DNA of 64,000 bases from Phycisphaerae bacterium (lineage in GTDB: Bacteria; Planctomycetota; Phycisphaerae; UBA1845; Fen-1342): the NCBI GenBank assembly GCA_963675745.2, contig CAXXWX010000016.1:160001-224000 (forward strand). The letters run 5' to 3'. Shown here piece by piece: positions 26,426 through 41,185 of this stretch. The notes below the pieces were generated by a model. The model searched no databases and had not been told where the DNA came from. It saw only the letters and a program-made list of their open reading frames with translations. The stretch's first letter is position 1, and each line of letters starts with the position of its first letter. Both the position numbers and the translations under genes were made by a program.

Positions 26426-27868
26426 CTAGCGGCCACGACTGTCAATCACGTTACCTTCGCAATCCACGAGCTCGACAACCAGCGGCATCTGGCCCAACGC
26501 GTGCGTGGCACACGAAAGGCACGGGTCATAGGCCCGGATGGCCACCTCGATGTGGTTGAGCAACGGCTCAGTCACCTCGTTACCGCTCAAGTACCGCTTG
26601 GCGATGCTCTCCACCGCGCGATTCATCGGCTCGTTGTTGTTGGTCGTCGAGACGATCAGGTTGGCCATTACGACCTGGTCGTTCTTGTCGACCTTGTAGT
26701 GATGGAACAGCGTGCCGCGCGGGGCCTCGAGCAGGCCGACGGCCTCTTCACGCCGCTCGCCGGTAACCACCAGGTCAGTGCCCTGCAAGTCCTTGTCGTT
26801 CAGCAGATCGCGGATCTTCTCGACCGCGTGCAACAGCTCGATCATGCGCGCCCAGTGATACGCCAGCGACAGCCCGTTGGGCTTGTTGTCGGTGACGGCC
26901 ATGAACTCCTTGCGCCCCGCCTCGGCTTCGGGCGTATCGATGAAATCGCAGGCGTTGACGCGCGCCAGCGGGCCCACGCGATACCAGCCGTTCTCGGGGC
27001 CGAGTTTCTTCAGGAAGGGGAACTTCATGTACGACCACGGACGCACCTCCTCACGCACGTGCTGGAGGTAGTCCTGGTAATCGACCTGGTCGATGATCTT
27101 GCAGCCGTCGGCGTCGACAACGCGCAGGTTGCCGTGGTACAGGTCCATGGCGCCGTCATCACGAATCAGGCACATGTGGTTTGACGGAAAGGCAGCGAAG
27201 TCCATCGCCAAGTTGAGGTGCTCGACGGTGTAGTCCTTGGCGATCTTGAGCGCCGCGCGCGCCCACTCGATCATCTGGTCAAGGTCCTTCAACAGCGCGT
27301 CACGCTCGGCGATTGACAGGTTCTTGTTCACGCCGCCCGGGATGGCCCCGGTGCCGTGGATTTTCTTGCCGGCGGTGGCCTTGATGATCTCCTGCCCATA
27401 CTTGCGCATCATCACGCCTTGCACCGCCAGGTCAGGGTGCTTTTCGATCACGCCGACGACGTTGCGGACCGCCACGTCGGCATCAAAGCCGAACAGCAGG
27501 TCTGGCGAGCAGAGATGGAAAAAGTGCAGCGCGTGCGATTGCAACGTCTGCCCGTAGTGCATCAGGCGGCGCACCTTCTCAGCCGTCGGCGTGAGCTTCT
27601 CGCCGCCGACAATACGGTCCATGGCCTTGGCGGCCGCCAGGTGATGGCTCACCGGACAGATTCCGCACAGGCGCTGGACCAGCACGGGCACTTCCCAGAA
27701 GGGACGGCCCTGGATGAACCGCTCAAACCCGCGAAACTCGACGATGTGCAGACGCGCCTGGCGCACCTGGTTCTTCTCGTCCAGCAGCACGGTGACTTTG
27801 CCGTGCCCTTCGACGCGGGTGACCGGCTCAATGACGACTCGTTTGAGTCCGTTCGTAGCTGTAACCAC
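26426..27868 (-). CDS. hoxH: [NiFe]-hydrogenase large subunit, group 3d-type
   Basis: PVTRVEGH, L1 RLCGICPVSH, EAPRG, L2 DPCLSCATH plus cleavable tail. Confidence 0.95.
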   Translation of the reverse strand: MVTATNGLKRVVIEPVTRVEGHGKVTVLLDEKNQVRQARLHIVEFRGFERFIQGRPFWEVPVLVQRLCGICPVSHHLAAAKAMDRIVGGEKLTPTAEKVRRLMHYGQTLQSHALHFFHLCSPDLLFGFDADVAVRNVVGVIEKHPDLAVQGVMMRKYGQEIIKATAGKKIHGTGAIPGGVNKNLSIAERDALLKDLDQMIEWARAALKIAKDYTVEHLNLAMDFAAFPSNHMCLIRDDGAMDLYHGNLRVVDADGCKIIDQVDYQDYLQHVREEVRPWSYMKFPFLKKLGPENGWYRVGPLARVNACDFIDTPEAEAGRKEFMAVTDNKPNGLSLAYHWARMIELLHAVEKIRDLLNDKDLQGTDLVVTGERREEAVGLLEAPRGTLFHHYKVDKNDQVVMANLIVSTTNNNEPMNRAVESIAKRYLSGNEVTEPLLNHIEVAIRAYDPCLSCATHALGQMPLVVELVDCEGNVIDSRGR

Positions 27869-27889
27869 TATCTATATCCTCCAGTCCGA

Positions 27890-28435
27890 TCAGTCGTACT
27901 TGATGAGCTGGTACGGAAGCTCGATGGGTTTGTCCGTCAGCAGCGCCACGAGCGTCTCCCAGATGGCATCCGCCGGCGGCGGGCATCCGGGAAGGTGATA
28001 GTCAATCTTCACCACCTCATGGCACGGGTAGACCTGTTTCAGCAGCAGCGGCAGCTCCGCATCATTGGGAATCTCCCGCGCCGGGTTGTACACGCTCGGC
28101 CCGTTGAGGTAGGCCTCGTCGTAGCACTCCTGAAGCGGGATGTTGTTGCGCATCGCGGGAATCCCGCCCATCGTGGCGCAGTCACCGAGTGAAATCAGAA
28201 CGTCGCAGTTCCTGCGAAAGTCCCGCAGCACCTCCACGTTCTCCTCGTTACAGCAGCCGCCTTCGACCAGTCCGACCGCGCAGCGCTCGCTGAACTTCTT
28301 GATGTCGGTTACCGGAGACTTGTGGAAGTCTATCAGCTCGACCAGTTTCAGAATCCGCTCGTCGATATCGAGGATCGCCATGTGGCAACCGAAGCAGCCG
28401 GCAAGCGACGTCGTTGCTACCTTGGGTTTGGCCAT
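27890..28435 (-). CDS. hoxY: [NiFe]-hydrogenase small subunit (short form)
   Basis: GCFGCH, VEGG, GDCA..GG, PGCPP; 181 aa. Confidence 0.93.
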   Translation of the reverse strand: MAKPKVATTSLAGCFGCHMAILDIDERILKLVELIDFHKSPVTDIKKFSERCAVGLVEGGCCNEENVEVLRDFRRNCDVLISLGDCATMGGIPAMRNNIPLQECYDEAYLNGPSVYNPAREIPNDAELPLLLKQVYPCHEVVKIDYHLPGCPPPADAIWETLVALLTDKPIELPYQLIKYD

Positions 28436-28454
28436 ACTATCTCACTCCCTTCTG

Positions 28455-29165
28455 CTATTTCGCCGCCGGGGCTTCGATGTCCGAACCAATCGGCTTCTCG
28501 TCGTACAGACGCTGTCCGATTGGGACGGCGTATCCGGTGCGTTTCTTCAGCAGCGCCCCGACCGGGCAGGCCTCGACCGCCTGGTCGGCTACATTGATAT
28601 TCGTGTCCGCCAGCTTGGCGTCAGAATTGACGGCGATCCGCTTTTCCGGGCCGCGCCCGACAAACTGGAAGACGTTCTTGCCGTCGACATCGCGCGAAGT
28701 GCGGATGCAGCGCGCGCACAGGATACAACGGTTGCGGTCGATCAGAATGTCCGGGTGCGAAGCATCAACCTCGCGCTTCGGATACATGTAGGGATACTTC
28801 GGCGCGGTTATGCCAAAGCGGTAGGCCAGCGCCTGAAGCTCGCAGTTGCCGCTCTTCTCGCAATACATGCAGTAGTGATTGCCCTCGACGAAGAGCATCT
28901 CGATCAGGTTGCGGCGTAGATTCGTGAGGCGCTCGGTGTTGTTTTCCACGATCATCCCGGGGCCGATCGGCTGCGTACACGCCGTCTGCGGTCGGCCGTT
29001 GACCATCACCATGCACACCCGGCAACTGCCGAACGGTGAGAGCCCCTTGTAGGCGCACAAACGCGGGATATAAACCCCGGCGTCATCGGCGGCTTCCATG
29101 ATCGTCTGCCCGGGCCGGCCAGAGATTTCGACGCCGTCGATGGTGAATGTAATCGTATCGCTCAT
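28455..29165 (-). CDS. hoxU: Diaphorase Fe-S subunit
   Basis: IPRLC, GSCRVC, HYCMYC..C, RCILCARC (NuoG N-terminal-like). Confidence 0.93.
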   Translation of the reverse strand: MSDTITFTIDGVEISGRPGQTIMEAADDAGVYIPRLCAYKGLSPFGSCRVCMVMVNGRPQTACTQPIGPGMIVENNTERLTNLRRNLIEMLFVEGNHYCMYCEKSGNCELQALAYRFGITAPKYPYMYPKREVDASHPDILIDRNRCILCARCIRTSRDVDGKNVFQFVGRGPEKRIAVNSDAKLADTNINVADQAVEACPVGALLKKRTGYAVPIGQRLYDEKPIGSDIEAPAAK

Positions 29166-29182
29166 ATCACATCCCTTCCGTA

Positions 29183-30997
29183 TCAGTGGGCATGAATCGA
29201 CTTGCGGCCCGTAATCTCTTCAGCGTCCGCCACCGCCGCGCCCAGGTCGAACGACGGCTGGAGCCCCTCGTCATCATCCTTGACCAGCGCGTTGTACACG
29301 AGGCGGAAGCTCTTCAGCGTCGTCAGAATCGGGTTCGGCGACGTCTGCCCCAGCCCGCACCGGCTCATTGTCTTCACGGTTTCCGCAAGCTCCTGCAGAT
29401 AGTCCAGATCCGACGGCACACCACGCCCCTCGAGGATTCTCACCAGGCGCTCCTTCAACAGCACATTACCGACACGACACGGGGTGCAATAGCCGCAGCT
29501 CTCCTCGATGAAGAACTCCATGAAGTGCTTGACGATGTCGAGGATGTTGCGCTGGGGGCCGAAGACCATGAACGCCCCGCCCGTGGCAAGGTCGTCGAAG
29601 CAGATCTTGCGTTCAAAGCCATCCGGGGCAACCATCGTGCCGCTGGCCCCGCCGACCTGCACCGCGATCGCATCCTCGCCGCCGGCGAGCTTCAATACTT
29701 CACGAACCGTGACGCCAAACGGGAGCTCGTATACGCCGGGCCGCCGGCAATCACCAGAGACGCTCAGCAGCTTGGTGCCCGTGCTGCCTTGCGAACCGAA
29801 CTCGCAAAACGCGGCCGGTCCGTTTTCCAGGATCTTGGTCACCGCGCACAACGTCTCAACGTTGTTGACCACTGTCGGACAACCCAGATAGCCCTTCTGC
29901 GCCGGGAACGGCGGGCGGTTCTTCGGATCGCCGCGCAAACCCTCGCACGAGCTGATCAGCGCGGTCTCCTCGCCGCAGACATATGCTCCGGCCCCCATCT
30001 GAATGCGAATGTCGAAATCAAAACCCTCTTTGCCGCACACTGATTTTCCGAGCAGCCCCGCCTCGCGACGTTGCTGGATAATGTGCTCGAGGTAAACGCG
30101 CAGGTATGCATACTCGGCGCGCAGGTAGACGATGCCCGTGTCCGCGCCGATCGCATAACCAGCGATCGTCATGCCGGCCAGAACTCGGTCGGGGCGTTCC
30201 GTCAGAATCACGCGATCCTTGAACGTCCCGGGCTCGCCTTCGTCCGCGTTGCAGAGCACGTAGCGCTGGCGACCTTCAGCCGCGCGACAGAACTCCCACT
30301 TCATACCGGTTGGGAACCCTGCCCCGCCACGGCCGCGCAGCCGCGCTGCCTTCACCGCGCGGATGACCTCCTTCGGGCTCATACCCACGGCCTTGCCGAT
30401 CGCGGCGCCGGGGTTGATCGGGCTGAAGATCAATGGCACCTCGGTGCGCAGGTTGTTGCGCACCATTGAATTGACCAGGTCGTGAGCGTTGTTGCCGTCG
30501 CCGAATTCGGTGACCAGCTTGTACGGGTCGCCGTGCTCGCGGAGCTGGGCCACAATATCCCTGGCACGGTCGCTGGACAGCCGCGTGACCGGCACGTCGT
30601 TGACCAGCGCCGCCGGCGCCTGGTCGCACAGCCCGATGCAGGGCGCCTCTTCCAGCGTGATCTTGCCGTCCTCGGTGGTTTGCCCCACCTTGATGCCCAG
30701 CTCATCCTCGAACACTCTGCGAATTCGGGCGGCGCCGTGCATGCGATCGATTATGTCGTTGCACAAGCGAATCACGACGTGGCCCTTCTTACGATCCGAG
30801 AGGTAGGAGTAGAAAGAGACCACGCTTTCCACCTCCACTCGGTGCGTGTTGACGGTCCGCGCGATCAGCGACATTGCGTCGCCGCTCACGCAGCCGAATT
30901 CGCCTTGCACCGCGCGGACGATATCCATCATCCGCGCGCGGTCGTTGTTAAACGCCGCGCAAATCGCTTTGACCGATCTTTCCAGACTCTTGCTCAT
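29183..30997 (-). CDS. hoxF: NAD(H) diaphorase subunit with NuoE-like N-terminus fused to NuoF
   Basis: GRGGAGFPTG, NADEGEPGTFKDR, GAGAYVCGEETAL, ESCGYCTPCR..C. Confidence 0.93.
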   Translation of the reverse strand: MSKSLERSVKAICAAFNNDRARMMDIVRAVQGEFGCVSGDAMSLIARTVNTHRVEVESVVSFYSYLSDRKKGHVVIRLCNDIIDRMHGAARIRRVFEDELGIKVGQTTEDGKITLEEAPCIGLCDQAPAALVNDVPVTRLSSDRARDIVAQLREHGDPYKLVTEFGDGNNAHDLVNSMVRNNLRTEVPLIFSPINPGAAIGKAVGMSPKEVIRAVKAARLRGRGGAGFPTGMKWEFCRAAEGRQRYVLCNADEGEPGTFKDRVILTERPDRVLAGMTIAGYAIGADTGIVYLRAEYAYLRVYLEHIIQQRREAGLLGKSVCGKEGFDFDIRIQMGAGAYVCGEETALISSCEGLRGDPKNRPPFPAQKGYLGCPTVVNNVETLCAVTKILENGPAAFCEFGSQGSTGTKLLSVSGDCRRPGVYELPFGVTVREVLKLAGGEDAIAVQVGGASGTMVAPDGFERKICFDDLATGGAFMVFGPQRNILDIVKHFMEFFIEESCGYCTPCRVGNVLLKERLVRILEGRGVPSDLDYLQELAETVKTMSRCGLGQTSPNPILTTLKSFRLVYNALVKDDDEGLQPSFDLGAAVADAEEITGRKSIHAH

Positions 30998-31140
30998 CAG
31001 CGTCCTCGCTCAATCTGTGAGCCCAATTACGCCCCCGACTTACGCCGACACCGGCTCGCCAATGTGTCGGAGTGTCGCTCCCTGTCTGGCAGTCGCACGG
31101 GCGCCCTGCGTCCCGTGCCGAACTGCCCCGCGTCTGTGCG

Positions 31141-31803
31141 TCACGCCTCTGTGCGCGCCGCGCGCTGCTCGCGCAACCAGGCGAGCCAGCTATCCATACC
31201 CTGCCCCGTTCGAGCCGCGAGCTCGATCAGCGGGGCCCGTGTGTTGATGCGCGACAGGTCGTCACGCACTTGATCAATCGCAAAGTCGAGCACGCCGCTC
31301 AGATCCATCTTGGTGAGCAGGATGGCGTCGGCGCGTTGAAAAAGTGTCGGGTACTTGGCGACCTTGTCGTCACCCTCGGGGACGCTCAGCAACACAACCC
31401 GCAGGTGCTCGCCGAGGTCAAAGGCCGCCGGACAGACCATGTTGCCGACGTTCTCAATAAACAGATAGCCCACGCCCTCCAGGTCGAGCGTGCCCAACCC
31501 CTCCGCCACCTGGGCGGCGTCGAGGTGGCAGCCGCGCCCGGTGTTTATCTGCGTGATCGATGCCGCCAGGTCACTGAGCCGCTCGGCGTCGCGCGACGTC
31601 TGCAAGTCCCCCACCAGCACCGCGGCCCGGCACTCGCCGGCCAGCGCCGCCAGCGTCTTCTCCAGCAGCGTTGTCTTGCCGCTGCCGGGCGCGCTCATCA
31701 GGTTGAGCGTCAGCAAACCGGCGGCCGTCATGCGCTGGCGGTTCTCGCGCGCCAGTGCGTCATTGACCTTGAGCACGCTTTCAACGACGTTCACTTTCTT
31801 CAT
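31141..31803 (-). CDS. hypB: Hydrogenase nickel-insertion GTPase
   Basis: SAPGSGKTT, GCHLDA, ENVGNMVCPA, TKMD. Confidence 0.95.
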   Translation of the reverse strand: MKKVNVVESVLKVNDALARENRQRMTAAGLLTLNLMSAPGSGKTTLLEKTLAALAGECRAAVLVGDLQTSRDAERLSDLAASITQINTGRGCHLDAAQVAEGLGTLDLEGVGYLFIENVGNMVCPAAFDLGEHLRVVLLSVPEGDDKVAKYPTLFQRADAILLTKMDLSGVLDFAIDQVRDDLSRINTRAPLIELAARTGQGMDSWLAWLREQRAARTEA

Positions 31804-32168
31804 GTCGCATCCGCGCTTTCCGCGAGCTCCAATACAACCGATCTCAGAATAATCTCGTTGCCGTCGATGATGCGCACATCGGCCTGCCCACATTCGGGGC
31901 AGGCGAAGCTGTAATCCACATCCGGCTCGAACCGCCGACCGCAACGCCGGCACTCCGCCAGCGCCGGCACCTCAACCATCTTCAACTCGGCGCCGGCGGC
32001 GATACTCTCCGTTCGCACGGCTTCCCAGGACATCGCCAGCGCCTCGGGCACGACCATTTGCATCCGCCCGATTGCCAGCTCAACCTCTGCCACGCGTTCA
32101 GCACCTTGCTCGCCCGCGTGCGCGAGCACCTGCTCGAGGACGTTTACTGCGATCGACATCTCGTGCAC
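31800..32168 (-). CDS. hypA: Hydrogenase nickel metallochaperone
   Basis: GTG start giving MHEMSIA; CRRC...CPEC. Confidence 0.93.
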   Translation of the reverse strand: MHEMSIAVNVLEQVLAHAGEQGAERVAEVELAIGRMQMVVPEALAMSWEAVRTESIAAGAELKMVEVPALAECRRCGRRFEPDVDYSFACPECGQADVRIIDGNEIILRSVVLELAESADAT

Positions 32169-32238
32169 AGCGCTGAAACTCCACGTTCTCTTTGCTGCGC
32201 GCCGTCGCGGACCCGCCGCGGGCGCGCTCATCGCGACC

Positions 32239-33255
32239 TCAACATATCCGCGGCAGATCCTCGCCATACGGACGCTGCACCACGCGCCGGCCGCCCACTG
32301 ACGTCAACAGCTCAACCATCGGTGTCTCGGCCGAGCGCAACCGGCCGATCACCGCCGCGTGCCGCCCAAGCGGGTGCGCCCGGCAGGCTTTCAGCACGCG
32401 CTCGGCGTCCTCCCGCGGCACCACGGCAACACATTTGCCCTCGTTGGCAACCGTTAACGGATCCAATCCGAGCAGTTCGGCCGCATGCCGCGCCATCGGC
32501 GTGAGCGGTACGGCGTCTTCCTCGATCTCTACGGCCAGACCCGTGCTCTCCACGATGTCAGCCAGCACGCCGGCCAGACCACCACGCGTTGGGTCACGCA
32601 GAAACCGCAGGTCGGCCCCGGTCGCAAACATGCAGCCGATCAAATCACCCAATGGTGCCGCGTCGCTCCGCAGGTCGGTCTCGAACGCCAACCCCTCGCG
32701 CGCCGACATCACGGCCAGGCCATGCTCCGCGATCCCGCCGTTGATAATGATCACGTCGCCGGGGCAAACGCGGCCCACGTCGACTCGTGCATCATCGCGC
32801 ATCTCGCCGACGCCGGCGGTCGTGATTGTCAGGCCGTCCACGCCGCGGCGCTCGATGACCTTGGTGTCTCCCGTGCCGATCACCACACCCGCCTCGCGCG
32901 CGGTAGCGGCAATCGAGTCGATAATTCGGCCAAGCGTCGCCAACGGCAACCCTTCCTCTATCACCAGTGCCAGGCTCAGCACTTTCGGCGTCGCACCGGC
33001 CACTGCCAGATCATTCACCGTTCCACATACGGCCAGACGCCCGATATCGCCGCCCGGAAACTCCAGCGGCTGTACGACGAACGCATCGGTGGTCATGCAA
33101 ACGGCGCCGCTCATCGGCGATATAACCGCCGAGTCAGACAGCGGATTGAGCAACGGGTTGCCGAGCTTGGGCACGATGTGCTCTGCCAGCAGGCGCCGCA
33201 TCAGCTCCCCCCCACCGCCATGCGCCAGCACAATTCGCTCGTCGGCCGCGGTCAT
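32239..33255 (-). CDS. hypE: Hydrogenase maturation protein HypE
   Basis: LAHGGGG, GTVNDLA, RDPTRGG, C-terminal LPRIC. Confidence 0.96.
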   Translation of the reverse strand: MTAADERIVLAHGGGGELMRRLLAEHIVPKLGNPLLNPLSDSAVISPMSGAVCMTTDAFVVQPLEFPGGDIGRLAVCGTVNDLAVAGATPKVLSLALVIEEGLPLATLGRIIDSIAATAREAGVVIGTGDTKVIERRGVDGLTITTAGVGEMRDDARVDVGRVCPGDVIIINGGIAEHGLAVMSAREGLAFETDLRSDAAPLGDLIGCMFATGADLRFLRDPTRGGLAGVLADIVESTGLAVEIEEDAVPLTPMARHAAELLGLDPLTVANEGKCVAVVPREDAERVLKACRAHPLGRHAAVIGRLRSAETPMVELLTSVGGRRVVQRPYGEDLPRIC

Positions 33256-34355
33256 CAGTTGCGTGCCCCCGCTTCCGCGTATCGGCCGGGCCGGCCATAT
33301 TTGTGCCAGGCGGCGCAGGTACCCTCACTGCTCACCATGCACGGGCCGATGGGCCGCGTCGGCGAACACGTCGTTCCAAACAGCGAACACGCCACCGGAT
33401 CCACCTTCCCTTGAATGACCTCGCCGCAAAGGCACCCCGGCGGCTCGTGGTCAGCGCCATACGTCACACCGAGCGCGTGCCGCGCATCAAAACGTCGATA
33501 CTCCTCGCGCAATTCCAGGCCGCTGCGCGGTATCGTGCCCATGGCGCGCCAGACGGCATCTTGCACCGCGAATACGCGATCAATGCAGGCCCGCCCGGCC
33601 GAGTTGCCGTCGTGGTTCACCGCGACGCCGTATACGTTCTCGACCGACGCATTACCCGCAACGGCCTGCTCAACCAAGCGCAGAATCCCTGTCAGCATTT
33701 GCGCCGGCTCGAATCCGACCACAACGCACGGCTTGTGAAACTGAGTGGCGATCGGCTGATAGGCGTCGGAGCCGATGACAACGCTCACATGCCCCGGACA
33801 CATGAATCCGTCAATCGGAACGTCGCCGGCGGCCAGCAACGCAGTCATCGCGGGAATCACGAGCTTATGCGCTGACAGGATGGTGAAATTCGTGAGCTGC
33901 GCTGCCTCAGCTTCCAGCACCGCCGCCGCAGTCGCGGGCGCGGTCGTCTCAAACCCGACCGCGAGGAAGACAACCTGCTCGCTCGGGTGACGCGTGGCAT
34001 ACTGCACGGAGTCGCGCGCCGAGTAAACCACGCGTACGCGCGCCCCTCGGCCGCGGCACGCTTCGAGGCTGTCCAGCCGACCGGGCACGCGTACCATGTC
34101 GCCATAGGTACAGATGGTCAATTCAGGGCGCGCGGTTAGCTCGCAGGCGGCGTCGATATACGCGCTGGAAGTGACACAGACCGGACACCCGGGCCCGCTG
34201 ATCAGCCGAACGCGCTCGGGCAGCATCGACTTGATGCCGCTGCGGAACAAGGCGACGGTGTGCGTGCCGCAGACCTCCATGATCCGGATGGGGTCGCAGT
34301 TGCGCAGCAGGCGGCCGATTCGTCCGATAATGTCTTGTGCATCCACGTGTGCCAC
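33255..34355 (-). CDS. hypD: Hydrogenase maturation protein HypD
   Basis: MEVCGTHT, GPGCPVCV, GFETT, PGHVS, CMVSSEGTC. Confidence 0.96.
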   Translation of the reverse strand: MAHVDAQDIIGRIGRLLRNCDPIRIMEVCGTHTVALFRSGIKSMLPERVRLISGPGCPVCVTSSAYIDAACELTARPELTICTYGDMVRVPGRLDSLEACRGRGARVRVVYSARDSVQYATRHPSEQVVFLAVGFETTAPATAAAVLEAEAAQLTNFTILSAHKLVIPAMTALLAAGDVPIDGFMCPGHVSVVIGSDAYQPIATQFHKPCVVVGFEPAQMLTGILRLVEQAVAGNASVENVYGVAVNHDGNSAGRACIDRVFAVQDAVWRAMGTIPRSGLELREEYRRFDARHALGVTYGADHEPPGCLCGEVIQGKVDPVACSLFGTTCSPTRPIGPCMVSSEGTCAAWHKYGRPGRYAEAGARN

Positions 34356-34376
34356 AAATCTGCCGTGTACCGTTGC

Positions 34377-34652
34377 CTAGGCGTCGTCCCCGTTGTCCTG
34401 CCCGGGGACTTCATCCACGAGCTCCGCTTCCTTCAGGTACTTCCACGTCTCAAGCGCCTCCGCCTCATCCAGCACCGATAGCGCATAGCCGGCATGCACC
34501 AGCAGCCAATCACCAACGGCTGCCTCGGGTGTAAATGCGAGGCCTATCTCCAACCGGCTGCCCTGAAAATCCACTGTGCCGACACGCCCGGTTGGCGTCC
34601 CATCCGGACCGCCGGCGATCTCAATCAGCTTTCCGGGAACCGCAAGGCACAT
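34377..34652 (-). CDS. hypC: Hydrogenase assembly chaperone
   Basis: MCLAVP, LLVHAGYA. Confidence 0.96.
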   Translation of the reverse strand: MCLAVPGKLIEIAGGPDGTPTGRVGTVDFQGSRLEIGLAFTPEAAVGDWLLVHAGYALSVLDEAEALETWKYLKEAELVDEVPGQDNGDDA

Positions 34653-34703
34653 CCGCTGACTCCGGCATCATGAGGGCAACACACGCTTGACACAATATAG
34701 CGA

Positions 34704-34719
34704 TGTGAAATCATTCACA
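34704..34719. promoter_or_regulatory. Rex-like (or CRP/FNR-family) operator upstream of the hyp-hox operon
   Basis: TGTGAA-ATCA-TTCACA, 52 bp upstream of hypC and next to a minus-strand -10-like TATATT (34694-34699). Confidence 0.6.
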
Positions 34720-34974
34720 GCGCTTCGCGCTTCATGTTGCAAGTGGCGTTCCGCCGAGGGTCGGCATTGCCCGCCCTTCCCGTCGCACACTCGCCCTAAA
34801 TACGCTTTTCTCAAGAGGATAACCGAACTTGCGCGCGGGTGTTAACCCGCAAGGCTGCGGATAATTACACACGACTTGCCCCAGCGCGCCAGATTGCTTG
34901 AATACCAATACGCACGATTAATATATTAATCATTGGCGGCCTGCAATGGGATTGCTCATCGCGGGCTGGGGATA

Positions 34975-35883
34975 ATCGGGTAGCCGGGGAGGTTGCCCTG
35001 CCCCGGCTCCCACACCACCGTACGTACGGTTCCGTATACGGCGGTTCACGAGCAACCCGCGAGTCGCCGATGCTCGTCCATCAGGCTGATCAGCCCGAGT
35101 CCGCGCAGTTCGGAGGTCGGGACGGCGTGGTTCATGTGACGGGCCCCGGCGTTCCACCAGGGACCACGCCCATTCCACGCCGACTGCCGGGCCCGCTCAT
35201 GATCCAGGCCCCGCCGGCACAGCTCCCTGAACTGGGTCCGGTGTCGCTTCCACTGTCGCCACAGGATGCAGCGCAGTTTTCGTCGTAACCACTGGTCCAG
35301 TTGCTCGAAGCTCGCCTTGACCTCCGCGAGCTTGTAGTACGCCACCCAGCCCCGCAGTACGCGGGTCAGGGATTCGGCGACGCGGGCGAGGTTGCAACCC
35401 CGTCCGCGACGCAGCATGGGGCGGAGCTTGGCCTTCAATCGGTGCACCGATTGCGGGGCCACCTTCAGCTTCGGCTGCCGGTGCATGGTCACGGTGTAGC
35501 CCAGGAACTTGCGGGTCCAGGGCCGATCCACCGCGCTCTTCTCACGGTTCACGTGGAGACGCAGTCGCTCCGTCACGAACCGCTCCACCGAATCGAGCAC
35601 CCGTTCGCCCGCACGCCTGGACCGCACGTAGATGTTGCAGTCGTCAGCATAGCGAACGAATCGATGGCCGCGCCGTTCCAGCTCCTTGTCCAGCTCATCG
35701 AGCAGGACGTTGCTCAACAGCGGCGATAGCGGCCCACCCTGCGGTGTGCCCTCGGCCCGGGGCGAGACCAGCCCGCCCTCCATCATCCCCGCCTGTAGAT
35801 AGCGGCGGAGGAGGAGTAACACCTTCTTGTCCTTGACCCGGCGCGCCACGCGTGACATGAGCACGTCGTGGTTCACCCGGTCG
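34975..35883 (-). mobile_element. 3' part of a class C-like group II intron (RT C-terminal half, domains V-VI)
   Basis: Minus-strand DV GAACCGCCGTATACGGAACCGTACGTACGGTGGTGT, DVI ending ...CTACCCGAT at 34975. Confidence 0.9.
35046..35883 (-). pseudogene. ltrA: Group II intron RT/maturase, C-terminal half
   Basis: FDRVNHD, GTPQGGPLSPLLSN, RYADD, KFLGY, maturase X domain; cut at the FFD motif. Confidence 0.9.
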
Positions 35884-35956
35884 AAGGAACACACGACACA
35901 CTACCCACATCCGCGACCTTCCCGCCACCGTCACGGTCCTCCGTAAACGTCATCCG

Positions 35957-36415
35957 ATGGAAGGTAAGGCGCTGCGCATCCATGGACATCTTCATCGAAA
36001 CGGTTGCTACCTTCTGGTGTTGGAGTTGCCGGACGGCACACGATCGCTGATCCCGGCCTGCTGGACCGATCTGGACAGAGTGTCGTCACCAACTCCTGAC
36101 GCCGAGACCCCGTCGAGCACATCACAATTGCTCGGATTGGTTCGTGACTTGCTCCAGGCCCGCAAGGTCGTGGATGCTCTGCTGCGAAGGCTGGAGGCTC
36201 AATCGCCATCAGCGAATGGCCTTTCGCAGGAGGAGCGCCGCGATGCAATACCAACTGGAGTTCTGGCCCACGACGGAGGTGGTTCTCCACAAGCACGAGC
36301 CATGGGAGAACTTGGGCATCAACGAGCAAGCCGAGCGAATCGCCCTGTTGGCGCGCTTGATCGCAAAGGCCGTATGTCCGGAGCGGGACGACGCGACGCA
36401 GGAGAGCAGCCATGA
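35957..36415 (+). CDS. DUF5372-like accessory protein; frame stays open 5' to the element end
   Basis: VTVLRKRHP..G..LELPDGTRSLIPACWTDL pattern (family call from recall); TGA overlaps the recombinase ATG (ATGA). Confidence 0.65.
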   Translation: MEGKALRIHGHLHRNGCYLLVLELPDGTRSLIPACWTDLDRVSSPTPDAETPSSTSQLLGLVRDLLQARKVVDALLRRLEAQSPSANGLSQEERRDAIPTGVLAHDGGGSPQARAMGELGHQRASRANRPVGALDRKGRMSGAGRRDAGEQP

Positions 36416-36422
36416 GCAGTAA
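36243..36422 (+). CDS. Small (59 aa) accessory protein overlapping the recombinase start
   Basis: Strong SD AGGAGGAG before ATG 36243; MQYQLEFW..W..ALLARLI; stop lies inside the recombinase 5' end. Confidence 0.55.
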   Translation: MQYQLEFWPTTEVVLHKHEPWENLGINEQAERIALLARLIAKAVCPERDDATQESSHEQ

Positions 36423-38634
36423 CGAGAAGATCAAACCGACTCACTTGGATCGCAACGCCTACGTGTACGTGCGTCAGTCCACGGCCACGCAAGTTCAACA
36501 CAACCGCGAGTCTACCCGCCGACAGTACAAGTTGGTGGATCGCGCCATCTCTTTGGGATGGCCGAAGGAGCGAGTCAAAGTCATTGACGAGGACCTGGCC
36601 CGCTCGGGCGCCGGCAACGTGGAACGCGACGGGTTCACCCGAATGACGGCCGAGGCGGCCCTGGGGCAGGTCGGGCTGATCCTCTCGATCGAAGTCTCAC
36701 GCGTCGCGCGCAACAATGCCGACTGGTATCGGCTGCTGGATCTGTGCGGCGTGACCGACACGCTGATCGGCGACGAAGACGGTCTGTACCACGCCGGCCT
36801 GTTCAACGATCGACTGCTCCTTGGACTGAAGGGCACGATGGCGGAAGCCGAACTGCACGTCATTCGGGCCCGGCTGGATGGTGGTATCCGCAACAAGGCT
36901 GCACGCGGCGAGTTGCGTCGCGGGCTTCCGGTCGGCTTTGTCTGGGGCGAAGACGACGGCGAAGTGCTTTTTCATCCCGACCAAGCCGTCACGGGCGCGA
37001 TCCGGGCCGTCTTTGACAAGTTTGCTGAAGTCGGGTCGGCCCGACAGGTCTGGCTCTGGTTCCGAGGTGAAGGGCTCCATTTTCCGCTACAGGCGAACGG
37101 TCTGCGCGAGATCCGCTGGGTGACGCCGACCTACACCGCCATTCACAACATCCTGACCAACCCGGTCTATGCAGGCGCTTACACGTATGGTAAGACTCGC
37201 CAGGAACGATATGTGGACAAAAGCGGTCGGCTCAGGAAGCGGCTGCGCCGCTTGCCGCAATCCGAGTGGGCCGTGCTGATCCAGGATCACCACGAAGGCT
37301 TCGTTGACTGGAACACCTATGAGATGAACCAGGCCCGCCTCAAGCAGAACACCCGCCCGCGTCCTCATCAGGCTGGCGGCGCGGTCCGTGAAGGCACGGC
37401 ACTGCTGCAAGGCATCGCGACCTGCGCCGCCTGTGGACGCCGCCTGAATGTTTACTACCAGGGCCGCAACGCCACGCCCGGCTACTACTGTCCCAGCAGC
37501 AACATCGCCAACGGCAGGGGACGCTGGTGCATGCGCGTCGGCGGAGCGCGGATCGACAAGGCGGTCAGCGCTGCCTTCCTGGAAGCGGTCGCTCCGGCGG
37601 GCATGCGGGCCGCGCTGCAAGCCGAAGAGCTGATCGACGCCGAATACGACAGTGCAGTAGCGCAATGGCGTCTGCAGGTCGAGCAAGCCCATTACCAAGC
37701 CGAGCGGGCTGAGCGTCGTTACCGATCAGTGGAGCCGGAGAACCGCCTGGTGGCTCGAACCCTGGAAGCCGAGTGGAACAAGCGGCTCGACGAACTGACC
37801 ACCGCCGAGGCCGAACTGGCGCGCCGAGAGCATCAACGTCCCGAACGTCTGACTGACCGGCAACGTGAGCGCATTCATCGACTTGGCGCAGACCTGAATC
37901 GCGTATGGGAAGCGTCCACAACGACGGACCGCGATCGCAAGGAGCTACTGCGATCCATGCTCGAGGAAGTCAACATCGCCGTGAACCGCACTGATGCCCA
38001 GGCGCACGTAACGCTCCGTTGGCGTGGCGGGCTGTTCACCGAGATCGATGTGCCGCTCTGGCATCCCAAGGAGACGGTCGTCCGCACTGATGAAGATACC
38101 GTGGATCTCCTGCGGCGACTGGCCGAGCACCATCCCGACGCGATGATCGCCGGTATCCTCAACCGCCAAGGGCGGAAGACCGTCCGCGGCCTGCGCTTCA
38201 GCGCCAACCGTGTCAGCAGCCTGCGGCGAAGTTGGAAGATCCCACGCTACCAGCCGCCAGATACTCCTCCCGAGGGCGAGTTGGTTACCGTGGAGAGAGC
38301 GGCGAAGATCCTCGGTACCGCACCTTCGACCGTACATCGCTGGATCAACGATGGGTTCATCGCCGGCCAGCAGGTGACTCCCGGCGCGCCCTGGCAAATT
38401 CGCGTTGCCGACGACTGGAAGGAACGCTTTGTCGAAGAGCCGCCGCCGGGCTATGTGGCGATGCAGGTCGCAACCCGAATCCTCGGCGTCTCGCGCCAGA
38501 CCGTCTTGCAACGTGTAAAGCGCGGCGAGCTGCAGGCGGTGCATGTGTGCCGCGGCAGGCGCAAAGGCCTTCGTATCAGAGTGTTAGATAATCAGCCGGG
38601 TCTCTTCGACGCGAATCAAAAAGCAGGGGTGTAG
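36412..38634 (+). CDS. Large serine recombinase (resolvase, recombinase, Zn ribbon, coiled coil, C-terminal HTHs)
   Basis: YVRQST catalytic Ser, SRVARN, NPVYAG, CAAC..YYC..WC, two terminal HTH-like segments. Confidence 0.93.
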   Translation: MSSNEKIKPTHLDRNAYVYVRQSTATQVQHNRESTRRQYKLVDRAISLGWPKERVKVIDEDLARSGAGNVERDGFTRMTAEAALGQVGLILSIEVSRVARNNADWYRLLDLCGVTDTLIGDEDGLYHAGLFNDRLLLGLKGTMAEAELHVIRARLDGGIRNKAARGELRRGLPVGFVWGEDDGEVLFHPDQAVTGAIRAVFDKFAEVGSARQVWLWFRGEGLHFPLQANGLREIRWVTPTYTAIHNILTNPVYAGAYTYGKTRQERYVDKSGRLRKRLRRLPQSEWAVLIQDHHEGFVDWNTYEMNQARLKQNTRPRPHQAGGAVREGTALLQGIATCAACGRRLNVYYQGRNATPGYYCPSSNIANGRGRWCMRVGGARIDKAVSAAFLEAVAPAGMRAALQAEELIDAEYDSAVAQWRLQVEQAHYQAERAERRYRSVEPENRLVARTLEAEWNKRLDELTTAEAELARREHQRPERLTDRQRERIHRLGADLNRVWEASTTTDRDRKELLRSMLEEVNIAVNRTDAQAHVTLRWRGGLFTEIDVPLWHPKETVVRTDEDTVDLLRRLAEHHPDAMIAGILNRQGRKTVRGLRFSANRVSSLRRSWKIPRYQPPDTPPEGELVTVERAAKILGTAPSTVHRWINDGFIAGQQVTPGAPWQIRVADDWKERFVEEPPPGYVAMQVATRILGVSRQTVLQRVKRGELQAVHVCRGRRKGLRIRVLDNQPGLFDANQKAGV

Positions 38635-38950
38635 TATGATGATGTCTCCAAGAACCCACGGATGTCGACGTCGAGCACCCAGTTCACCTTCCTCGTCAGC
38701 AGTCCGGTGTACAGGGCGTCCAGCGCGTTGTGCTGGCTGCGCCCCGGCCGGAAGCCGTACGAGAAGCCGAGGAAGTCAGTTTCGTAGATGGCGTTCAACA
38801 CCTCGACCGTGGCCCGGTTGTAAACTGGACGAGCTTGTCTTCCAGCACGGGCACACCGAGCGGCCTTTGCCGCCCGTCGGCTTTGGCGATGTACACCCTA
38901 CGAACCGGCTTGGCTCGGTACGCTCCGCGTTTGAGCCGCGCGGAAAGGTC

Positions 38951-39580
38951 GCGGCGCTGCCACCGATTCAAAACCCGCCACGGAGGCGCCTCCCGGGGCG
39001 ACCACTGCGGAGATCACATCCCTGGAGGCGTCGGAGGTTCTCCTCCAGCGCCTCGCCGTAGGCTTTCCACGTCTGCCCGTCTACACCCGGCGCGGCATCC
39101 CGCTTGAGGCGGAAGTACGCCTCCCGCAGCGTGTCCAGGTTGTAAACGTGGTGCGCTTTCCGGCATTTCGGCGGCGTGCCCAAGACGCTGGTGTCGACAA
39201 CCTCAAGGCTGCGGTCATCAAGGCCGACTGGTTCGACCCGGATCTCAAGGAGCGCGGTGAACCGCATCTTCCTATCACTTCTTGCCGCATGGCGTATCCG
39301 CTCCAACGCACTGGGCAGGTCACTGGAGCGGCGGTAGGTGCATCCCCTTGGCTGTGTCCGCGGTTTCCCGCTCACACGGTACGCATCTTCGACCGGCGTG
39401 CCCGTGTAGGGTTCGCCATATCCGTCTCCTTCGCCCGGCACGGTGTCCGGGACCTGTTTTGCTGGCGCGGATTCCCTTTGGCCAAGCCCAATTCGAGTTC
39501 ATGGATGACCATCCGATCATCCGGAGTCTGGGCGACTACGAACAGTTCGTCCAAACCGCTTTTCGGGAGACAAAGCTATG
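38951..39580 (+). mobile_element. IS21 istA-like fragments interleaved with intron sequence
   Basis: AFRHFGGVPKTLV.DNLKAAVIKADWFDPDL (about 39154-39246), HTVRIFD, EFMDDHPIIRSLGDY. Confidence 0.65.
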
Positions 39581-39717
39581 ATGGTAGAAACACTTCGAGC
39601 CCCTGGCGTCCAAATCGTGGTCGCCGATCCCCTTGAGGGGGAACCAGCGTACCCAGGTTCCCCCTCAAACTCCCCCTCCTTCCTTCATTCCCCTCCGGCG
39701 GGAAGGAGGTGGCGTCT

Positions 39718-40528
39718 ATGAATGAAGCCATGCAGACAGCTTTGAAGAAGTTGCGGCTTTCCGGGATGGCGCAGTCGTTGGAGGTGCGTTTGCAGGAAGC
39801 GTCCAAGCCACGGACTCAACCACGCGGAGTTCTTGGAGCTGATTCTCCAGGATGAGTTGGCCATCCGCGCCGAGCGGCAGATGAACCGGCGGGTCAAGGC
39901 CGCCGCCTTCCGCGAACTCAAGCCGCTCGATCAATTCGACTTCGCGTTCAATCCTTCGATCAAGAAGAAACAAGTGTACGACCTGGCCACCTGCCGGTTC
40001 ATCCGCGAAGCGCGGGACTGCCTCCTGCTCGGTCCTCCGGGCACGGGCAAGAGCTTTTTGGTCCAAGCCCTGGGCTATCAGGCCATCAAGGCGGGATTCA
40101 CGGTGCTGTATCGCTCGATCTTCGATCTGGTGCGCGACTTCCTGCACGACGATGCCTTCGCCGGCATCGACCGAGTGCTAACCAGATACCTCAAACCGGA
40201 CTTAGTCATCATCGACGATTTTGGGATGAAGCAACTGCCGAAGCGCTCGGGGGAGTATCTGTTTGAGATCATCATGCGGCGCTACGAGACCCGCTCTACG
40301 ATCATGACCTCGAACCGGCCGCTGGAGGATTGGGGCAAGGTCATCGGCGACGTCCCGGCCGCTACTGCCATCCTGGATCGCTTCCTGCACCATGCCGAGG
40401 TCATCACCATCACGGGCAAGAGCTACGGCTGCGCAAACCAAGCCCGTGATAGCAAGAGCCCCAACGACCCGACCGACAACATGACGAGAAGAAGGGCAAG
40501 GTTGCGGCTCCCTTGCCGGACCCAGTGA
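39718..40528 (+). pseudogene. istB: IS21-family helper ATPase, frameshifted near 39805 and near the 3' end
   Basis: LKKLRLSGM N-terminus in another frame; GPPGTGKS, VIIDDFG, TSNRP..WG, AILDRFLHH. Confidence 0.85.
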
Positions 40529-41185
40529 GGACGGTATAGAAACATCAACAAAAGTGCTGGGTTTGAGGGCGCTCGCCTGGACTTCTCAGGCGCCTCCCGT
40601 ACTACGAGCGGCGGTAGGTGCATCCCCTTGGCTGTGTCCGACGGTTTCCCTCTGCGTGCCCGTGTAGGGTTCGCCATATCCGTCTCCATCGCCCGGCACG
40701 GTGTCCGGTCCTGTTTTGCTGGCGCGGATTCCCTTTGGCCAAGCCCCTTCCCTCCGCCCCCTCCGCACGGGGACTTCGCAGGTCTACGGGCCTGTCCGAC
40801 TTCTCGCGTCCGTTCATCATCGGCGTGTGGACTTCCCCACGGCCCGCAGCACCATCAGTTGCGGGCGGACACGAGATCTCCCGGTTCTCGCGCGAGGTGT
40901 TTCCGCACATGCACGGGGTCTCAGACCGCGCGGGGTCCCACCGCATCTCGCGATATCGATGCGTCGGATGTAGCCTTCCGCCTACCTCCACGGCGTCGGC
41001 ACCCCAAAGGGAGTTACTTTCGCGGCTCAGTACCCGGCCTGCACGTACCCCTGTCAACGCTTCGCCCCTGCCCTCGCGGGCAACGACGCATGACTCGGGG
41101 CCGCTGTGGGCCGCTAACCCTTCAACGTATGACTCCTTCATTCACTACACCTCGCCGGTTTATCCCGGCGCACGGAGGAACCAAC

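Follow-up and report, generated by a model that had tools for sequence, protein, structure and literature searches.

The window analysed here is a stretch of 64,000 nucleotides from a Phycisphaerae bacterium (assembly GCA_963675745.2, contig CAXXWX010000016.1, positions 160,001 to 224,000 of the forward strand). It holds an element of 2,766 bp (35886–38651, counting one AA of the junctions) that is flanked on both sides by halves of reverse transcriptase (RT) genes of group II introns (Table 1), and that occurs once in the source assembly (28 contigs, 5.2 Mb). A first-pass annotation of the sequence had described three genes within it, and this gene content was confirmed: an open reading frame (ORF) probably of the DUF5372 family (ORF1), a 59-codon gene (ORF2) and a large serine recombinase (LSR) of 740 aa. 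We consider it highly probable that this is one member of a widespread minimal mobile-element family, whose LSR integrates the joined element ends at RT-motif DNA of group II introns and whose first gene is split by its own attachment site, attP.

Table 1. Element, attachment sites and intron remnants at the locus (positions in the window)
Feature	Position	Strand	Details
3′ part of intron A	34975–35885	−	100% identical to three intact copies in the same genome
Intron A domain V/VI RNA	34975–35046	−	Rfam Intron_gpII, 44.6 bits against a gathering score of 40
C-terminal RT/maturase half of intron A	35046–35885	−	begins FDRVNHD...; RVT_1 from profile position 79, GIIM
Left junction core AA (attL)	35884–35885	+	reads ...GGTCG-AA-GGAACACACGACACACTAC
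Left end of element, P′ arm of inferred attP	35886–35909	+	GGAACACACGACACACTACCCACA; conserved in 80 loci, dyad-symmetric with the right end
ORF1, probable DUF5372 family	35930–36415	+	codon-phase entropy; PF17342
ORF2, 59 codons	36243–36422	+	wobble phase moves to the ORF2 frame from ~36216, up to 36422
LSR, 740 aa	36412–38634	+	Resolvase, Recombinase, zinc ribbon, long C-terminal extension
Right end of element, P arm	38626–38649	+	G-rich run 38626–38629 and conserved ATG 38636–38638
Right junction core AA (attR)	38650–38651	+	reads GTAGTATGATGATGTCTCC-AA-GAACCC
Decayed N-terminal RT half of intron B	38652–39441	−	ends ...VNWVLDVDIRGF at the junction; ORF frames broken
Group II intron 5′ RNA, domains I–IV	40916–41136	−	Rfam group-II-D1D4-6, 191.6 bits

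The element and its genes

Both junction strings quoted in the first-pass annotation were found in the window exactly as given. The AA of the left junction is directly followed by GGAACACACGACACACTACCC and, on the RT sense strand, is the TT that opens the second Phe codon. Removal of the element by script leaves an open minus-strand frame, ...VLDVDIRGF|FDRVNHDVLM..., so the in-frame RT motif claimed for the emptied site is real, with the caveat that it joins halves from two different RT genes. The left boundary is fixed to within a shared AAG, because intact introns with a 100% identical flank read GGTCGAA|GAACTT at this place. Moreover, the first base beyond the core agrees between element and target in only ~0.6 of the related loci described below, and the shared core is therefore AA and not AAG. 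The 19-nt end arms, which had been put forward as inverted repeats, match at 11/19 positions (binomial chance of at least 11 matches, 0.0023). A family-wide dyad symmetry of the same positions appears more telling than this count: outward positions 1–3, 9, 12–13, 15–17, 19 and 21 are symmetric in common across 58 related elements, and the pattern of the joined ends, read outward from the core in both arms, is GGA.....C..CA.ACTAC.C. At the level of sequence, the AA common to both junctions in all loci and the dyad-symmetric attP arms would be in keeping with recombination at a 2-bp core. Serine integrases recombine at such a core inside imperfect inverted repeats, and a non-palindromic core sets the orientation of the insert; since AA is non-palindromic, a fixed antisense orientation to the RT gene would follow.

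The LSR carries a catalytic domain (PF00239, residues 16–167, 56.3 bits against a cut-off of 23.3), a Recombinase domain (PF07508, residues 196–313, 69.4 bits) and a zinc ribbon (PF13408, residues 331–388), the last scoring 24.1 bits, slightly below its cut-off of 25.3, and annotated beforehand in many relatives. R21-Q22-S23 of the nucleophilic-serine domain and C338, C341, C360 and C373 of the zinc beta-ribbon are invariant in 12 aligned LSR sequences. Two HTH_17/excisionase-type domains lie near the C-terminus, with TIGR01764 at residues 689–716, and DUF4368 is absent from the Pfam matches of the 740-aa protein (E up to 0.01). Similarity to solved recombinases is distant, the best score being 30.6 bits to a catalytic domain, with SprA/YokA at ~21 bits. 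The best NCBIfam match is XisF, and it is a weak one (60.6 bits against a cut-off of 375). Complete elements of the family measure 2,703–2,933 bp (median 2,742), and the LSR frame is intact in 56/58 of them.

Upstream of the LSR, coding was assessed from codon-phase variability (entropy) over 79 aligned related elements. The ORF1 frame (a 152-aa ORF) is open from the first bases of the element and shows coding constraint up to ~36200. Its earliest ATG within the element is at 35957, whilst the codon at 35930 is GTC in the window and GTG in many relatives. Read from 35930, the window ORF1 scores 13.9 bits with PF17342 (E 0.056), below the cut-off of 25. Five orthologues, showing 35–47% identity to it, were compared with the same profile: L032 scored 27.0, L041 31.0, L067 31.2 and L065 24.6 bits, and L016 gave no match. 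The predicted structure of ORF1 is a small beta barrel and a helix (mean predicted local distance difference test score, pLDDT, 78), for which a Foldseek search of the PDB returned nothing at E ≤0.001 and weak Tudor/SH3/chromo-like barrels at E ~0.3. ORF2 overlaps the frame of ORF1 and also runs into the start of the recombinase gene, by 11 nt, and orthologues of 51–66 aa were identified in 48 loci. It has no Pfam or NCBIfam match, and the Atlas gave unnamed clusters only, with scores ≤0.88. A three-chain structure prediction of ORF1, ORF2 and LSR gave scores of 0.00, 0.49 and 0.00, which weigh neither for nor against binding; any roles of ORF1 and ORF2 in the element are putative.

Insertion target in related loci and in the window copy

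Related elements were gathered as two sets. One genome per species was scanned for the genome set, giving 10 loci of 35–88% identity in Competibacteraceae, Syntrophobacteria, a deltaproteobacterial bin, Rhizobium, Mesorhizobium and Phycisphaerales. For the metagenome set a recombinase-alignment scan gave 595 relatives, of which the best 80 (61–81% identity) were kept. The flank counts that follow rest on these 90 related loci, with junctions placed by fixed offsets from conserved end motifs. AA precedes the element in 76/76 left junctions (at a fixed offset from the ACTACCC motif) and is present in 59/59 right junctions, where the search pattern itself demanded the last A. The element ends and the AA core are unchanging across the related loci, as the first-pass annotation had required of other copies.

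Read on the strand opposite the recombinase, left flanks of at least 18 nt show F-[DGNE]-x-x-x-[HQRK] in 73/76 loci (the exceptions being L011, L056 and L062) and right flanks end in [DG]-[ILVF]-x-x-[FY] in 57/59 (exceptions L093 and L100), giving a combined reading of ...D-[ILV]-x-x-[FY] | F-D-x-x-x-H. The conserved target positions are the D-A-D-I codons on one side and F-D...H on the other; they are non-symmetric and extend ~25 nt to each side. ORFs of at least 60 aa in the left flanks matched RVT_1 in 46/50 cases, 45 of them beginning at profile position 79 and 19 matching GIIM too. For the right flanks the match was found in 42/44 ORFs, 41 of which end at positions 75–78, on their last residues. 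The break point in the RT lies between Pfam RVT_1 positions 78 and 79. All 16 C-terminal RT halves that were tested showed highest similarity to TIGR04416, from position 134, with scores of 171.8–226.1 bits against ≤64 bits for other RT models, and 13 of them had no GIIM match. On these counts (16/16 tested; GIIM in 19/50) the flanking RTs are of intron type rather than retron, diversity-generating retroelement or defence RTs. Where the element was removed from L014, a 461-aa RT frame was restored. The first-pass annotation had proposed that the element is a hyperparasite that uses group II intron RT genes as attB, in which case the flanks of homologues should map to the FFD codons of RT genes. 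The outcome is strongly positive, and the flanks of the 90 related loci support the hyperparasite proposal.

Nine element pairs are at least 88% identical over 1,500 nt, and in six of these the two members have unrelated flanks (for example L014/L023, 99.3% identical, and L015/L016, 93.0%). Such pairs point to repeated and recent insertions at this one motif, more than to a single old event. Isolates contain such loci as well: TOL plasmid pWW53 and a P. mandelii JR-1 plasmid share the left junction, JR-1 having an RT to the right of the recombinase too; the RefSeq annotation of a Mesorhizobium plasmid runs RT fragment, hypothetical, recombinase, RT fragment; and near full-length copies of the L017 element are present on 9 rhizobial plasmids. 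Four distant recombinases (L019 and L116–L118, 35–43% identity) show the layout DUF5372, small ORF, recombinase where annotated, and no RT was found in the flanks of these four. RT targeting therefore marks one clade, of ~57% identity or more to the window LSR.

Two of the related loci show further nesting or duplication. In the P. mandelii JR-1 plasmid (L106, 604–2842) the left RT half is itself split by an IS66-family element, making three nesting layers. In L013 and L014, two contigs of one bin, intron and element together are 98.4% identical over 3,884 nt, after which the contigs diverge; this may reflect separate invasions of two intron copies or the copying of intron and element together as one composite.

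At the window copy an RT with a maturase X domain is accompanied by a 3′ domain V/VI, which identifies the target as a group II intron (intron A). The C-terminal RT half alone matches TIGR04416 at 225.8 bits, from position 134. The three intact intron A copies of the genome are 1.9 kb each, encode a 467-aa RT/maturase reading ...MDLEKFFDRVNHD... and have the DNA sequence GGTCGAA|GAACTTCTCC at the site. The right flank, which starts at 38652, is found nowhere else in the genome; it ends in ...VNWVLDVDIRGF as opposed to ...MDLEKF in intron A, and by tblastn its RT half (intron B) shows only 29–45% identity to the intact RT over short pieces. The earlier claim of an insertion into a group II intron RT therefore stands as regards the RT-motif target, but not as regards a single RT, the flanks coming from two different introns.

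A simple insertion, in which one intact RT gene was hit once and its two halves form the two flanks, would account for the in-frame joined flanks and their canonical motif. Most related loci look exactly so, L014 with its restored frame being one of them. For the window copy we nevertheless give this scenario almost no credence. Up to the core the left flank shows 100% identity to intron A; from there the intact intron continues GAACTTCTCCAG... and the window, after the element, continues GAACCCACGG..., and the right flank is without another copy in the genome. Moreover, identity is split between the halves when 38 loci are compared: between the window and L033 the N-halves share an identity of 0.91 but the C-halves one of only 0.29, whereas between the window and L090 the C-halves reach 0.71 and the N-halves only 0.16. 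An ungapped test also flags hybrid flanks in L023, L025 and L037, a weak signal under sparse sampling on which no claim is based.

Judging from these sequences, the hybrid most likely arose by recombination between two element copies, as a deletion or other rearrangement, or is an assembly path through such copies. The possibility that it is wholly an artefact, the assembler having entered via one element copy and left via another in a genome with matched insertions, is in our view a real one, if rather less probable than a genuine hybrid. Contig C2 is 100% identical over C2:1–8224 to window 26751–34974 and then intron-less, indicating alternative assembly paths at exactly this place. An exact-match contig from run X20 ends 4 nt past the right junction, pointing to another right-hand context that shares GAAC; run X21, which comes from that sample too, contains a variant that shows 6 differences and is flanked otherwise; and the contamination of the genome bin is 6.08%. 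However, the window contig passes through the element unbroken, and the X20 contig holds on its left side 29 nt of the intron A flank with zero differences, so that only a single left context was assembled there. A search with RVT_1 revealed no reciprocal RT halves in the bin, its matches being confined to the window half and the three intact intron copies. Linkage across 2.8 kb is beyond what contigs can settle. The main conclusion is independent of whether the hybrid is real or an artefact.

The surroundings of the two introns were also inspected. The part of contig C2 (C2:1–9724, L108) that is shared with the window is the hypC/D/E region; past 8,224 nt it runs, with no intron, into a hairpin and T-run. 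The window copy of intron A therefore lies just downstream of a terminator-like hairpin. Class C group II introns use terminator-like hairpin sites. About 300 nt beyond the intron-less junction, at C2:8532–8570 (L006 2083–2121), 39 nt are 100% identical to part of the intron A 5′ region. On the other side, contigs from the sample are without 8 nt at 38817 and 80 nt at 38952–39031 of the intron B RT remnant, which indicates that other, perhaps intact, intron B copies are present in the sample outside the bin. Intron B probably begins with the 5′ RNA segment at 40916–41136, although other fragments now lie between this segment and the RT remnant. One of them is an IstB_IS21 fragment, an IS21-type helper gene (39833–40528, plus strand; profile 34–232 of 238, 209 bits), and the area consists of stacked, nested mobile-element fragments. 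Positions 39326–39489 and 40606–40746 are 83% alike; together with the D1–D4 match at 40916–41136, this resemblance points to a 5′ intron region that is present in two incomplete copies.

A first gene predicted to read across the joined ends

The right end of the element carries an ATG (38636–38638) that stands 4–6 nt after a G-rich run resembling a ribosome-binding site. When the ends were joined by script, the right-end start codon (ATG in 54/58, GTG in 4/58) was in frame with ORF1 in 58/58 complete elements. After joining, all 58 keep this frame open over a minimum of 127 aa, whilst the other two frames are open for at least 100 aa in 0/58 and 3/58. In integrated elements, by contrast, the position of the earliest internal in-frame start varies, the most frequent one being shared by only 31/79, and many of the alternative internal starts would remove the conserved HPFEG part of ORF1. 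Since the start codon and the ribosome-site-like run sit at the right end and come into frame upon joining, ORF1 would be whole only in the excised circle. Furthermore, the ORF1 frame ends as ATGA on the LSR start codon in 49/79. We infer that ORF1 and, via this overlapping stop and start, the recombinase are fully translated only from the excised circle.

While the element is integrated, the right-end ATG begins a frame of 141 codons that points outward (38636–39061, plus strand), antisense into the RT remnant. No Pfam match was found for this frame, which probably exists only as a consequence of the split start.

The mechanism that we consider highly probable is as follows. Elements of ~2.7–2.8 kb, each with a DUF5372-family gene, a small gene of 50–65 codons and an LSR, form a family in which the LSR would recombine attP, made up of the joined ends as an imperfect inverted repeat round AA, with attB. 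The latter would be the DNA coding for D-A-D-[IL]-x-x-[FY]-F-D-x-[IV]-x-H of group II intron RTs, with crossover at the TT that opens the second Phe codon. A non-palindromic core would always place the element antisense to the RT gene. Insertion splits the RT and precise excision, through a putative circular intermediate, would restore it. As attP would be embedded in the element operon at its 5′ end, with start signals at the right end and the rest of the first gene at the left, full translation from the circle only would favour re-integration and keep integrated copies quiet.

Several observations weigh against this mechanism. The 90 loci are akin to one another, and the counts therefore represent non-independent events. 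Left flanks other than RT were found in L056 and L062 and, by eye, also in L018 (a stop codon) and L076 (12 nt only); the left flank of L011 reads FENLDP, and the right flanks of L093 and L100 are without the motif. The genome itself has three intact intron A copies with an unoccupied site despite an intact LSR gene. Contigs of four runs over 34000–41000 showed no element-skipping joint and no circle joint, contigs being prone to drop rare variants, and the same contig and assembly searches found no empty hybrid site and no tandem element copy. A degenerate pattern of the predicted attP junction was found in 0/119 loci, in 0 viral contigs and in 0/301 genomes of the family of one carrier. A simple promoter scan of the plus strand over 35700–38900 found none. 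Lastly, peptide conservation across attP could partly reflect a DNA-binding constraint and not coding.

Metagenome contigs of ~2.7–3.2 kb were considered as candidate assembled circles and rejected, as all fetched loci with ends have flanking DNA and none has the attP junction.

The non-RT flanks raise the question of whether the recombinase has relaxed, transposon-like specificity, needing only a short TCGAAGAA-type sequence for which RT genes are merely the commonest carriers. The one-sided non-RT flanks of L018, L056, L062 and L076 would fit, as would target arms that are variable outside the conserved codons. We judge this very unlikely, however. Target conservation reaches ~25 nt on both sides, taking in the His codon and the D-A-D-I codons, and RT flanks were found in 73/76 and 57/59 loci. 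Moreover, the loci with a non-RT flank keep an RT on the opposite side where this is readable (the right flank of L018 matches RVT_1, that of L056 reads ...DIDLRSY), and later rearrangement therefore fits better than off-target insertion.

That precise excision would restore the RT frame, and that the best, though weak, NCBIfam match of the LSR is XisF, might suggest a domesticated intervening element, a switch whose regulated excision turns intron mobility on in the manner of skin in sigK or fdxN/XisF. This seems to us improbable in the extreme, because near-identical elements occur in unrelated RTs, in several intron lineages and several phyla, and in many carriers the RT gene shows additional decay or has received other insertion sequences. 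Intact unoccupied introns are present in the same genome and, moreover, the target is itself selfish.

A bolder extension of the integration mechanism would make the element an obligate intron hyperparasite that spreads by two routes, with the circle hopping between introns and composite introns moving by retrohoming. The domain IV ORF region of an intron can tolerate cargo, and splicing and retrohoming of the composite might persist with RT supplied in trans from intact copies, which would take the element to further sites and hosts. The RT-motif target would be always present, host-dispensable, multi-copy and horizontally mobile; an attP-wired operon would give the first gene and the coupled recombinase at full strength only from the circle; and the element would disable introns as a side effect and so could brake them naturally. 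We regard this full scheme as unlikely.

Significance and comparison with known systems

We propose that integration of the joined ends at the RT motif provides a serine recombinase whose natural target may be set by the codons of the RT catalytic-core motif, held constant across phyla by protein function. This would answer how a tiny element without transfer genes always finds a safe, portable landing site. It would also add an extra layer to the nested parasitism among bacterial mobile elements and offer a cause for many "broken" intron RT annotations. Moreover, the family would supply dozens of natural recombinase/site pairs with short sites and known attB variation, for the study of DNA reading and as candidate integration tools, and the attP-split gene is a testable case of a mobile element sensing its integrated versus free state.

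An LSR acting at a 2-bp core is a known mechanism class, whilst the RT target, the minimal three-gene layout and the position of attP inside the first gene look new. A literature search returned no publication that describes recombinase elements with intron RT genes as their target, and none on DUF5372. The accessible portions of PMC4853749 and 10.1101/2021.11.05.467528 make no mention of such an element; the target-gene Pfam figure or supplements of the latter, a preprint, could list RVT_1. That preprint (10.1101/2021.11.05.467528) links DUF4368 to multi-targeting LSRs.

The closest comparison by mode of movement is with the clostridial elements Tn4451/Tn4453 (TnpX) and Tn5397 (TndX). In these an LSR is the sole mobility enzyme, movement is thought to proceed via an excised circle and a 2-bp core stands at both ends; for Tn4451 the circle joint has been reported to create a signal that drives recombinase expression. 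The present element likewise has an LSR as its only mobility enzyme, with a putative 2-bp core and a predicted circular form, and its start codon across the joined ends parallels the Tn4451 joint signal. It differs in having no DUF4368, no cargo or mobilisation genes and a length of only 2.77 kb, in the core AA as opposed to GA, and in one protein-coding target within another mobile element as opposed to many sites. Moreover, it has the extra DUF5372 and small genes and the two C-terminal HTH_17 domains.

With the integrases of phiC31, Bxb1, A118 and SPbeta (SprA) the LSR shares the order Resolvase, Recombinase, zinc ribbon. As in integrases of phages and of integrative and conjugative elements, its predicted attP is an imperfect inverted repeat of ~50 bp, its predicted attB is less symmetric and its putative 2-bp core is non-palindromic. 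Unlike these it is distant in sequence, is accompanied by no phage or conjugation gene, has a retroelement as target and would have attP inside its own first gene. The skin element (SpoIVCA) in sigK and the fdxN element (XisF) resemble it in that a coding sequence is interrupted and would be restored by precise excision, and in the weak XisF match. However, those are single, vertical, developmental elements in host genes, whereas here a mobile family of several lineages occupies a selfish gene.

Mycobacteriophages show integration-dependent immunity, and the circle junctions of IS911 and IS30 form promoters. The joint of the present element would similarly fall within a gene or expression signal, such that integrated and free forms express different products; in contrast to those systems, what is predicted to be split off is neither a promoter nor a C-terminal tag but a start codon with a ribosome-site-like run. 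Targeting of one mobile element by another is known, for example from group IIC-attC introns in integron attC sites and RmInt1 in ISRm2011-2, and the nested parasitism on a conserved sequence of another mobile element is common to these and to the family described here. In those cases the intron is the invader, whereas here the intron RT gene is invaded, by a DNA recombinase. Lastly, modules of DUF5372, small ORF and recombinase on rhizobial plasmids (such as S. meliloti pRRI128_5) share the layout, with an LSR of 35–43% identity. They differ in their surroundings, in that none of the 4 distant relatives examined is flanked by an RT, the feature that marks the clade of the window element.

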